Virus record (IMG/VR): IMGVR_UViG_3300025030_000074
Span: 19,084-83,083 of that record
From: a virus
Length of the DNA stretch: 64,000 nucleotides
Direction: 5' to 3' (one strand)
Shown: positions 42,001-45,000 of the stretch, piece by piece
Layout: each line of letters opens with the position of its first letter
How positions within the stretch are numbered: position 1 is the first letter of the stretch
Made by a program: the position numbers and the translations under genes
Notes under the pieces: model-generated
What the model was told of the DNA's origin: nothing
Seen by the model: the letters and a program-made list of their open reading frames with translations, nothing else
The model's database searches: none

Positions 42001-45000
42001 GCTTCAAACTTTTTCTTTTTCTTTGCTAAAGTTATTTCCTTCTTAAGGATTATACGAACATCATCCACCAATTTTCTAAGAGAGGTTATATCTACCTTAG
42101 GAGACTTCTTGAATTCCTGTTCACCAACTTTTATATCTTTGTTCTCTATACTATCAGGATTTTTCTGGAAATATGTTCTTGAAGTTAGATTTCTAACATC
42201 TAGGTCAACTGTTACATCAAAAAGAATGTCGTTTGCAACTCCTCCATATACTCTTTCTATTTCCTTTCTAATAGAAACTTCTTTTGCACTTCTAAAGATG
42301 TTAAGAATCCTTTGAATTATTAACTTTATAGTACGTAAGATTTGACCTCCAATACCCTCTGTTTTAGATTCTTGCCATCTATCTACTATATGATCAGATA
42401 GGAGTTTACCTGCAGTTTCCTTTCTTAAATATTCATCTGTATCTGATATCAAACCTTCAGCAAGTTCAGAATATTCCTGCTTAACTTTTTGGTATTTCTC
42501 AGTTTGAGGAACTAATTCCATCATCCTTTTTACAAGAGGATTGTTATCTCCTAATAGTTCTATAAAGAAATGTGAGAATTCTTCTGGAATAGTTTTTAAG
42601 TTAGCCTTGCCTTGTGCCACAAGTATCAATCTTTCAAAGATTAAGGAGGCTCCTATGGCATCTACTCCAACTCTTTCCTTCATATTATCTACCATCTCTA
42701 AAGTAACTCCAAAAGGAGCAAGTATCTGAAGTAATCTTTTATCAAGTTCTATATCTCGTGCCTTTTTATCTTCAACCGTTATTTGAAGTAGTGGTTTAGA
42801 GGAAGGCTGTTCTTGAAGCTTATTCCTAACTTGCATTAATACTTTTCCGAGAATATTGGCCCCCTTTAAAGTTTTATCATATACTCCAAAAAGAGTATCT
42901 TTCCAATAATTCTTTTCAATTATTTCTTGAGTTCCTGTATTAAGTAATTTTTGTGTTAAATCAGGGTTATTTTGGAACTTAGCTTTCACAGCATTCATCA
43001 TATACTGCAATCTATTTTCTTCATTTTGGTCCAAAGTAAACTGCCTTCTTACCTTCCTACTTGCAGCCCCACCTTGTTTAGAAATTATAGCTATTTTAGA
43101 TTTTTCTTCAAGATTACTAGTTCTTTGAGCCATATAGTAACCTTCAGAATTCCAATATTCATTTCCATGTTCGTCTTTAATAGGAACTTTTAATTGTTCA
43201 AAATTTGACATAAAAGTTTTAGAAGTTTCCAAAGCTGCATCATATCTTTCTTTAGTATATTGCTCTTCTTTATTAATAACTATTTTACTTTTTCCTACTT
43301 CTTTTATAGGTTGTTCTATATCTACAATTTCCTCTTCCTCTTCTATAAATTCTGCTCTATCTTTTGCAAACTCCTCTTTCATTATAAATCCATAAGAATG
43401 GAAATCAGATTTTTTAGAGTAATCTACCCTATCTCTATTTGTAGGAACAATAGTTTTAACGTTATCATTATCAAAGAAGTATTCTTTAAGATGATTCTTG
43501 AATCCAAGAGAAGTTATCTTATGATATACTCCTAAATTAATATCTCCATCATGAAATCCCATAAGTTTATATAACCTAGTTATAGGAGGGGATATTAATG
43601 CTCTGGTCTCTGGATGTACTGCCTTTGGCTTAAGTATCTTTAGATAAGGATAAAATCGTTTATTACCTTTAGAATCTACAAAGGAAGGGTTACTATCTTC
43701 TCTTAAATCTAATAAAATAGAAGTAGGTATTTCATCTTGTTTTTTAACTTCTTTTGCATTAAGAGGCTTTCCTTTATCATCAAGCCTAATTCTTGGTACC
43801 CATCTATTGTTAGAATTATTATGCCTTAAGAATTGATCAATGAAGTTATCCGTACTAACAGGATCATACTTAGAATATAATCCTCTTACTATATCTCCTT
43901 GAAAGTCAAATAATCCTTTACTTTGAAACCATTCCGAGGGAATAAGATGAATAAAACTTCCTGTTTCAAATCCCATACCGTTAGCAAGTAATGCATATTC
44001 TGCTAAATTACTTGCAAACTTCTCCGTTTTAGGATCTCTCAATAGTTGTTGCCAAGAATTTCTTATTTCTTCTACTTCACTGTCACTTAATCTACCCGCA
44101 TTATTAAAAAATACAAACTTTAAAGTTCTTGTGACATCTGCTGTGAAGAAAGGTTTGAGTATACTTACAAGTTTATTGCCTTGAAAGTCAGGATTTTCTT
44201 TCATCTTAATTTCCATATCCTCTTTTAAAGCAACAAGCTGATTTGCTATAGAATTATCTCCTATGAATAACCTTTCTCTATTTCCTTCTCCATAAACATC
44301 TTTAAATTTTGTAGTATCTTTTGAGTACAAGTATGTCAAGAAATCATAGTTTATGAGTTCCATATCCTCTTCTTGCAATCTAATTCCCAGATTTTCTTCT
44401 ATGGACTCTCTAACTGCTTGAAAAGAACTTTGCATCCAAGGAAATTCTTTGCTCAAATGTTCTATAGGTCTTCTATAGCCAAATTCTGCAAAAGCATATA
44501 ATCTAGGATACCTCTCTAAGGCCGGCCAAGTCTCCACTCTTTTTATTTGATTTAAAAAGGCTATTCCATCACTCATGGTAGGTCCTAGTCCCATAGCATC
44601 GGAACGCATGGAAACAGATTCCTGAAATATCTCTTCTCCTAATTTTCTATATTCAATAAAGGAAGATAATATCCTCATTTGAACCTCATAATGTTTTTTT
44701 GTTCTTTCTTCACCTTTTGCCTTTATACCATTTTCAAGTTCCTTAGTAGAAATATCAAAGAATCCCTTCATCATCTTGTTAATTCCAGATAGATTTTTAA
44801 CCTCTTCAATAACCTGTTTTAAAGCTTCCTTTTCCGCTACTAATGTTTCTCCTTTATTTCCATAGAGTTCAGAAAGTCTTCTTATTATTGGTTGTGAGAT
44901 GAAAAGGTCTGCAGTTTTTAACCCATGACCAGATCCTACTATAACATCCCATACTCTACTTGTAAATCTACTTAGATTAAGAATGCCCATTATAGGTTTG

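Follow-up and report, generated by a model that had tools for sequence, protein, structure and literature searches.

We describe here a NADAR domain built into the giant protein that contains the virion RNA polymerase of a groundwater crAss-like phage. The DNA in question is a stretch of 64,000 nucleotides (hereafter the window), positions 19,084 to 83,083 of the IMG/VR virus record IMGVR_UViG_3300025030_000074, a record of 83,083 bases with a CheckV completeness of 87%. On the minus strand of the window, positions 39036 to 53471 form a single uninterrupted open reading frame (ORF) of 4811 amino acids (aa), named P0001, which by its homologies is a fused crAss-like virion cargo polyprotein. 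The NADAR domain (aa 3398-3557, window 42801-43280) is a clean insertion at the seam between two of its modules, a virion RNA polymerase (vRNAP) and a gp49-like cargo module, which are separate genes in other crassviruses. We favour, with moderate confidence, the explanation that a stand-alone phage NADAR was captured at this seam, that it is delivered in the virion with the polymerase cargo, and that it would act as a counter-defence N-glycohydrolase on nucleobases.

A reading made from the letters of the window alone (hereafter the sequence-only reading) had already placed a NADAR in this polyprotein, and the profile searches confirmed it. The peptide concerned lies within P0001, and its motifs map to window positions 42825-43214. 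A Pfam scan of the whole of P0001 resulted in one family only, NADAR (PF08719; E 1.3e-18, 68.2 bits against a gathering cut-off of 35.1), with an envelope at aa 3416-3553 (window 42813-43226) covering model positions 8-163 of 163; the same family scored 76.1 bits in a six-frame search of the record. In PHROGs, phrog_1017 matched aa 3417-3557 (E 3e-30). The search of P0001 against PDB chains gave three matches, 6vr4_A, 8bau_A and 2b3w_A, of which 8bau_A (a NADAR, E 8.2e-7) and 2b3w_A (Escherichia coli YbiA, E 1.3e-4) were found by this single-sequence comparison. A clade profile built from the domain and 23 relatives matched YbiA over its whole length (E 5.2e-36, 127 bits) and 8bau, the Phytophthora NADAR, at E 3.8e-17.

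Key residues were mapped onto the HMMER alignments from the roles described in PMC11543638; the YbiA residue numbers used here (W89, E48 and others) are our own count on the profile alignment. E3443 corresponds to E43 of the P. nicotianae NADAR (Pn) and to E88 of the E. coli C7 NADAR, E3519 to E125 and D3525 to D130, all three being identical; the glutamate at E3519 marks the YbiA branch and is replaced by Asp or His in others. At R3450 (K50 in Pn, K95 in C7) lysine is conservatively changed to arginine, and at F3528 (W133) tryptophan is changed to phenylalanine. All five residues are invariant in an 18-member alignment of the clade. Judged from these alignments, the domain is a complete, intact-looking NADAR, with the residues contacting ADP-ribose (ADPr) largely kept.

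The stand-alone relatives of the domain define its borders. A word-indexed search with a 176-aa region resulted in 23 proteins of 144-182 aa at E<=1e-5 among 49 candidates, and 19 of these 23 are 55-63% identical to the domain of the window. Their N-termini (M-x-INKEExYTxERFD) align from aa 3398 onward, so that an entire stand-alone protein is embedded in P0001. At the position of their start codon the window DNA reads ATA GTT ATT. Upstream, an acidic tail or linker (aa 3355-3397, window 43281-43409) leads from the end of the polymerase to the NADAR and is absent or short in relatives without a NADAR; downstream, the junction alignment shows a short linker (aa 3558-3579, window 42735-42800).

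For comparison we used a set of vRNAPs obtained by an exhaustive HMMER search with aa 2150-3340, which gave 1952 representative clusters at E<=0.001, the best 150 of which were examined. None of these 150 exceeds 38% identity to the window, and apart from P0108 (38%) none exceeds 33%. The polymerase and the C-terminal module (C module) are fused in 25 of the 150 representatives. In 22 of these 25, the junction length, taken from the end of the polymerase homology to the start of the C-module homology, equals that of the window minus about 172 aa (±100 aa). An alignment of the seam in seven fused relatives showed a conserved polymerase end (LG-x-x-N/H-x-x-E-F/Y ... LP-x-N) and a conserved start of the C module. 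Between these landmarks P0109, P0113, P0051 and P0058 have a short linker only, and P0046, P0036 and P0067 have short unrelated stretches. In the window the acidic tail, the NADAR and the 22-aa linker stand there; the NADAR with its linkers is the sole extra block, and the insertion comes to about 190 aa. In cr85_1 (Steigviridae) a gene for a 2401-aa 'putative RNA polymerase' is followed directly by a separate 1351-aa C-module gene, and our own NADAR profile found no NADAR in either protein; this stand-alone polymerase likewise ends in an acidic tail. If the NADAR is delivered, the seam between the polymerase and the gp49-like module may be regarded as a place where cargo can be added.

Two further ideas about the insertion were rejected. 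A recent foreign origin was not borne out by composition, the NADAR having a GC content of 0.306 and a third-position GC content (GC3) of 0.206, within the ORF's own range (0.338±0.024 and 0.228±0.032, respectively). A separate transcript for the NADAR was dismissed as well, with 9 promoter-like sites found against 6.4±2.3 expected, and 0 terminators.

The fusion is not an assembly artefact. In JGI/IMG, Logan and ENA together, 7 contigs carry the exact 4811-aa sequence. P0002, a partial protein of another run with 99% identity, passes uninterrupted from the polymerase through the NADAR into the following module, and an ENA fragment of 1508 aa (P0005) has the NADAR at aa 95-254. The stretch 42300-43900 is present in groundwater and soil metagenome runs from 11 studies; no RNA run is listed for it. 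Bridging contigs were counted after a possible source study had been set aside. Positions 42300-43642 lie on a 6223-base contig of one remaining study and positions 42379-43379 on a 1001-base contig of a second, each with 0 differences and with no indels or joints reported, and the NADAR junctions at 43280/43281 and 42800/42801 are therefore independently bridged. The 7 contigs and the junction-bridging contigs from these two other studies together rule out an artefact.

The modules around the NADAR, all on the minus strand, were identified by homology. The placement between an RNA polymerase and a second zincin-like region, as given in the sequence-only reading, was upheld. The PDB chain 6vr4_A (phi14:2 gp66, a virion RNA polymerase) matches aa 1792-2685 (E 6.8e-33), with weaker stretches up to about aa 3229, and this homology together with the DFDID motif at aa 2654 marks a gp66-type vRNAP. 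The polymerase module spans aa 1792-3354 (window 43410-48098), with the catalytic DFDID at aa 2654-2658 (45498-45512) and its C-terminal end placed by the conserved end motif of the junction alignment. In a motif scan, P0001 contains one HExxH only, HEAFH at aa 1346-1350 (49422-49436), within a first zincin-like region at aa 1295-1440 (49152-49589); BLASTP aligned this region with the HEAWH region of P0003, a relative treated below. A local hhalign comparison, with 37 sequences for the HEAFH region and 19 for the start of the C module, gave a probability of 94.9 and an E of 4.4e-8 over 141 columns, pairing HEAFH with EEFSH at aa 3630-3634 (42570-42584). The second zincin-like region (aa 3580-3734, 42270-42734) is thus, by profile alignment, a real paralogue of the first, in which the first metal-binding His has become Glu; as a zincin with its own HExxH it did not stand, EEFSH being found there. 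The relatives keep TLPEExGHF at this place, with Glu for the first His of HExxH.

The gp49-like 'RNA-polymerase subunit' module occupies aa 3576-4811 (39039-42746) and has a hydrophobic helix at aa 4678-4700 (39372-39440), found by a hydropathy scan. A tblastn search of phages with the last 1252 aa of P0001 resulted in 67 GenBank phage records, 35 of which cover at least 80% of the query. The best matches cover 94-100%, and in the 67 records the module is a separate gene annotated as 'putative RNA-polymerase subunit'. These records come from Bacteroides and Cellulophaga crassviruses as well as from uncultured ones. The flanking genes fit the crassvirus layout, with a plus-strand replication block (DNA polymerase, primase, exonuclease) and a minus-strand virion block, in which P0001 has a 1461-aa virion structural protein (phrog_28748) as a neighbour. 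A HEAFH region, an RNA polymerase, a NADAR and an EExxH zincin-like paralogue thus stand in a single ORF of the polyvalent-protein kind, the peptidase activity being predicted.

We further asked to which branch of the NADARs the domain belongs. The best NCBIfam match was TIGR02464, the YbiA-type riboflavin-intermediate N-glycosidase model (59.8 bits, under its cut-off of 73.7), followed by the DS32_2 NADAR family anti-phage protein (NF053876; 44.9 bits against a cut-off of 240). In PADLOC, the candidate model PDC-M42C matched at 6e-8. Against the PDB at E<=10, the clade profile found six chains only, YbiA, 8bau and four unrelated proteins; no DarT1-linked NADAR chain appeared to be among them, the presence of the G. 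lovleyi NADAR in the PDB being taken from the papers' text. In a maximum-likelihood tree of 59 domains, whose bootstraps had not fully settled and of which the starred clades alone were used, the window falls in a starred clade of 25 rows (100/99) with the stand-alone phage proteins, P0003, P0182 and P0181, the last being the nearest row. The DS-32-type NADARs form a separate starred clade whose link to the phage clade is left unsettled by the tree, most YbiA-like genes of Bacteroidota form another starred clade, and P0161 stands on a very long branch. The tree does not contain P0027, the second NADAR of genome G036 or the weaker matches given no locus. By these profiles the domain is YbiA-like rather than DarG1-like.

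The fusion is rare among vRNAPs. Over 180 proteins, our own NADAR profile matched, besides the cluster of the window, only P0003 and P0161, the latter being the 1 NADAR carrier among the 150 vRNAP representatives. P0003 (3599 aa, NCBI) contains HEAWH, SDFDYD and a C-terminal NADAR that is 58% identical to that of the window, the remainder of the protein being about 25-35% identical. P0161 (2393 aa) has a divergent NADAR at aa 1649-1785, downstream of DFDID (39.5 and 42.4 bits). The profile PF08010 (Phage_30_3) had no match in P0001 at E<=1 and matched only the NADAR of P0161, weakly (E 0.002). The sequence-only reading had called for a survey of domains swapped at this position in other vRNAPs; our search for such domains covered the NADAR profile, phmmer with one stretch of P0003, and the junction lengths. 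It brought out NADARs at other positions (at the C-terminus of P0003 and inside the polymerase in P0161) and the junction lengths given above, and Pfam found no family in P0171 and P0037, two vRNAP representatives with long unexplained stretches.

In P0003 the NADAR is preceded by a domain of about 200 aa (aa 3215-3420) with a GGAxGAD motif, for which Pfam gave no match and which resembles viral DprA/SLOG-like clusters (ESM Atlas 0.92, a lead only). This domain recurs at other positions in giant vRNAPs of crAss-like phages, namely in P0156 (aa 1661-1891), P0036 (aa 2543-2737), L027 and L028. L028 (IMGVR_UViG_3300034019_000517, locus 3257-23299) is a 6681-aa single open frame with vRNAP homology and the SLOG-like domain; in L027 the open frame is longer than 5122 aa and runs off the start of the locus.

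A relative of P0003 also shows the NADAR outside the polymerase. L026, whose polymerase is 44% identical to that of P0003, is without both accessory domains and has a stand-alone NADAR gene about 12 kb away on the same 129.8-kb contig. No relative came up when IMG/VR was scanned with the polymerase part of the window. Close stand-alone NADAR loci were found once in IMG/VR (L003) and once in species genomes (L017), and there was no vRNAP within 10 kb of either; the contig of L003 encodes a P0003-like vRNAP about 12 kb away. Two more fusions belong to this NADAR clade, both from 425 candidate proteins of 309-2000 aa. One, P0181 (675 aa, on a JGI contig of 14.4 kb), joins the NADAR to a helicase of the RecD2/Pif1-type SF1B group and is the nearest relative of the domain of the window (76-77% identity); the other, P0182, has an unknown N-terminal part of 640 aa followed by the NADAR. 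In GenBank, 391 phage records match the domain, all at less than 60% identity, and the 40 listed of these 391 are all non-crAss phages, the annotated ones being small ORFs. In one genome for each of 185,579 species a single locus of the clade was found, on a 60.8-kb contig of a Sphingobacterium metagenome-assembled genome (MAG). On this sampling the clade is essentially phage-borne.

Delivery in the virion is suggested by the flanking modules. In phi14:2, gp65, gp66 and gp67 are virion proteins, and some phages have all three in a single fused polyprotein that is 'likely cleaved'; the gp65 orthologues have a zincin-like domain (Drobysheva et al., bioRxiv 2020.03.07.982082). In crAss001, gp45, gp46, gp47, gp49 and gp50 were detected in virions by mass spectrometry and are modelled as ejected cargo (Bayfield et al., PMC10172136). 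Phage NADARs have moreover been argued to be often packaged in virions (Iyer et al. 2022, PMC9503650). It is reasonable to infer that the NADAR of P0001 is packaged and co-injected with the phage DNA, because both modules flanking it are homologous to proteins detected in crAss-like virions. Its position at the seam, flanked by zincin-like domains, would also fit a cargo module delivered with the polymerase.

Crassviruses infect Bacteroidota, the phylum of the Sphingobacterium MAG with the single species-genome locus of the clade, and 401 genomes of this phylum, taken as that of the likely host, were sampled for potential targets. DarT (PF14487) was found in 34 of the 401 genomes, a family that may miss DarT1, since a Bacteroidota DarT query matched DarT2-type PDB chains only and the available text of PMC11543638 does not mention 'DUF4433'. 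By coordinates, 32 of these 34 carriers have a Macro match within 1.5 kb of DarT; a NADAR adjoins DarT in none (0/34), and a Pfam NADAR occurs anywhere in the genome in 4. Several of the DarT-Macro (DarTG2-like) pairs, present in 32 of the 401 genomes, look decayed, with in-frame stops (e.g. G211, G143, G372, G259). DarT (PF14487) and Macro searches of the 83-kb record gave no match, and a second ADPr-processing gene in the record was accordingly rejected.

NADARs were likewise found in 34 of the 401 genomes. A PRTase-CE gene (PRTase, phosphoribosyltransferase) lies directly upstream in 4 of the 7 lower-scoring NADAR loci inspected. When two of these pairs, L054 and L057, were compared with NCBIfam, both gave a DS32_1 match, and the DS32_2 scores of their NADARs were 274.3 bits (above the cut-off of 240) and 237.3 bits (slightly below it). 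DS-32 has been validated as an anti-phage system of two genes and is likened by its authors to DarTG with the toxin swapped (preprint 10.1101/2025.01.08.631726). DS32_1 exceeded its cut-off in 5 of the 401 genomes, each time next to a NADAR match. These DS-32-type pairs, in which PRTase-CE/DS32_1 is followed directly by a NADAR, are L054, L055, L057 and L058 (in G170, G072, G322 and G353) and G036:C10:276091-277630; at L058 an AAA_15/AbiEii-like ATPase adjoins the pair, and in G023 a NADAR is kept with only a 29-aa PRTase remnant. The top bacterial NADAR against the phage-clade profile (111 bits), L053 (G235:C1:353987-357397), lies directly downstream of an NAD+ synthase gene.

The explanation which we favour can be set out as follows. 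A phage NADAR gene from the YbiA-like branch, originally stand-alone, would have been captured whole and in frame at the seam between the polymerase and the zincin-like start of the gp49-like module, giving one polyvalent cargo protein of 4811 aa. The flanking modules would be packed in the capsid and ejected ahead of or with the DNA. The NADAR, packaged with them, would reach the cell ahead of all phage gene expression, whether it remains tethered or is set free by the zincin-like peptidase domains. Its most likely action there would be to remove ADPr, or a similar ribosyl adduct, from the nucleobases of phage DNA or of early RNA. Every NADAR subtype tested hydrolyses ADPr-guanine in DNA (PMC11125620), and NADARs also reverse the ADP-ribosylation of guanosine in RNA (PMC11833690). 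The fusion partners in the clade, RNA polymerase (twice) and an SF1B helicase, argue for nucleic-acid substrates. Several points weigh against this explanation. The domain scores under the NCBIfam cut-offs of both the YbiA-type and the DS-32 NADAR models. The tryptophan of the YbiA 'NWE' motif (W89) is a gap in the clade, and R3450 matches the K95R change of the C7 NADAR at the phosphate-binding position, a mutant which kept its activity in vitro and lost the rescue of cells from DarT1 (PMC11543638), that is, its in-vivo antitoxin function. A related phage has the same NADAR stand-alone, away from its vRNAP, so that the fusion is not needed for function. A peptidase could also remove the NADAR before packaging, and soluble ADPr derivatives have been favoured as substrates of phage NADARs (Iyer et al. 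2022, PMC9503650).

This last view, in which the domain degrades soluble molecules derived from NAD+ or ADPr (immune signals or toxic by-products) in place of adducts on nucleic acids, we hold to be unlikely here. It agrees with the pairing, in P0003, of a NADAR with a domain resembling DprA/SLOG, which would match the SLOG+NADAR architectures of Iyer et al. 2022 (PMC9503650), and with the NAD+ synthase gene adjoining L053; the available NADAR literature reports no such activity, however, and the partners of the clade are nucleic-acid enzymes. We regard as quite unlikely the proposal of the sequence-only reading that the domain is an anti-DarT1 enzyme, which would take ADPr off template guanines right beside the injected polymerase. 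NADARs do reverse the guanine modification made by DarT1 (PMC11543638), and the T4 protein AdfN, a phage NADAR, reverses it during infection and protects against DarTG1 (PMC11257639). DarT acts on single-stranded DNA (ssDNA), the phi14:2 vRNAP transcribes ssDNA in vitro (bioRxiv 2020.03.07.982082), and within P0001 the NADAR is covalently joined beside the polymerase. The four NADAR subtypes tested all hydrolysed ADPr-guanine in DNA and none ADPr-thymidine, but DarT1-linked NADARs alone rescued cells from DarT1, the sigma70-linked type having a partial effect; YbiA and the T4 NADAR (gp30.3), active on ADPr-guanine in vitro, gave no rescue in that study, protection being pair-specific (PMC11125620). 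The domain of the window is YbiA-like, no DarT1-linked chain was seen among its six PDB matches, it has Arg at the K95 position, and the DarT genes of Bacteroidota pair with Macro and not with an adjacent NADAR, within the reach of PF14487, which may miss DarT1. Neither the DarT1 part of the proposal nor its template repair at the polymerase was supported, none of our results showing physical coupling after any processing. On balance DarT1 is a weak candidate target, and toxins of the DS-32 kind, or other ribosylating toxins, are no less plausible.

That the domain mimics an orphan antitoxin against a DS-32-type defence (PRTase and NADAR), or against some other ribosylating toxin that is not a DarT (YarT, for example), is likewise improbable. 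DS-32 is a validated anti-phage pair with partner swapping relative to the toxin-antitoxin system DarTG (10.1101/2025.01.08.631726), its toxin-gene homologues (DS-32A) adjoin a NADAR immediately in each of the five genomes in which they exceed the cut-off, DS32_2 is the second-best NCBIfam match of the domain, and the ADP-ribosyltransferase (ART) toxin YarT is neutralised by a YbiA-type NADAR, the myxobacterial YbiA rescuing from its own toxin YarT only (PMC11125620). The DS32_2 score of 44.9 is nevertheless far under 240, the DS-32 NADARs form their own clade in the tree, the pairs are rare (5/401), and the available text of the preprint does not state the chemistry of DS-32A (10.1101/2025.01.08.631726). 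We give as little credence to a NADAR that is undelivered or non-catalytic, whether trimmed before packaging and acting late, serving as a spacer or folding module, or doing YbiA-style housekeeping on riboflavin intermediates. The best NCBIfam match is indeed the riboflavin-intermediate N-glycosidase model, and the flanking zincin-like domains could excise the NADAR. Against this, the clade shows no variation at the key residues, P0001 has kept the stand-alone protein in full, with a composition ameliorated to that of the ORF, and insertion into a cargo polyprotein and into a helicase is difficult to square with a metabolic role.

Parts of this architecture are known from other systems. Like the domain of the window, T4 AdfN (gp30.3; PMC11257639) is a phage NADAR without a partner toxin for which removal of ADPr from DNA as counter-defence has been proposed or shown; unlike it, AdfN is a stand-alone product of another NADAR branch, PF08010 having no match to P0001 at E<=1, and lies outside any virion polyprotein. 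The polyvalent virion proteins of Iyer et al. 2017 (PMC5512222) resemble P0001 as giant virion polypeptides with unrelated enzymatic and zincin-like domains, predicted to be injected and processed; NADAR is absent from the main text of that paper, and the carrier in P0001 is a crAss-type two-barrel vRNAP. The zincin-like, DFDxD RNA polymerase and gp49-like modules of P0001 are homologous, in the same order, to phi14:2 gp65-gp66-gp67 and crAss001 gp47/gp49/gp50, for which fusions have already been described, but the described crAss-like cargo sets are without a NADAR and P0001 has about 190 aa inserted exactly at the seam. E. coli YbiA (TIGR02464, PDB 2B3W) is the best relative in the structural database, the residues aligned with E48, E125 and D130 being conserved; the domain of the window differs in scoring under the TIGR02464 cut-off, in having Arg for Lys55 and Phe for Trp133 with the Trp89 position deleted, and in being phage-borne and fused.

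NADARs are typically stand-alone except in RNA-virus polyproteins, where they stand beside the RNA-dependent RNA polymerase (Iyer et al. 2022, PMC9503650). P0001 shares with these a NADAR beside a viral polymerase, but they are non-virion replicase polyproteins of eukaryotic positive-strand viruses, whereas the window belongs to a DNA phage with a DNA-dependent RNA polymerase that, judging from its homologues, would be packed in the capsid. DS-32 (PRTase and NADAR) and DarTG1 (DarT1 and NADAR) likewise have a domain of the NADAR superfamily. Unlike in DarTG1, there is no DarT in the record and no DarG1-type PDB match was seen, the NADAR lying inside a cargo polyprotein; unlike in DS-32, the domain is far under the DS32_2 cut-off and has no PRTase-adjacent context, no DS32_1 search of the record having been made. 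In the literature searched, which included PMC7886860, PMC5512222, PMC9503650 and PMC10607447, we found no NADAR described in a crassvirus polymerase protein, although supplementary tables may list such architectures. Phage NADARs are known as early or stand-alone counter-defence proteins, and polyvalent virion proteins are known to carry other enzymes; P0001 joins both.

A more specific possibility, to which we assign a low probability, is that the NADAR remains attached to the injected polymerase, or is released alongside it, and removes ribosyl adducts from the ssDNA template or the nascent RNA at the start of transcription, its natural target being a non-DarT system of Bacteroidota such as DS-32. 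If true, this would be a capsid-delivered, transcription-coupled reversal of nucleobase ADP-ribosylation or phosphoribosylation, and it would reveal what the DS-32 phosphoribosyltransferase attaches to nucleic acids. If the NADAR captured in P0001 is delivered as we favour, it would offer a defined, small and separable module for asking which base modification crassviruses meet in the first seconds of infection.

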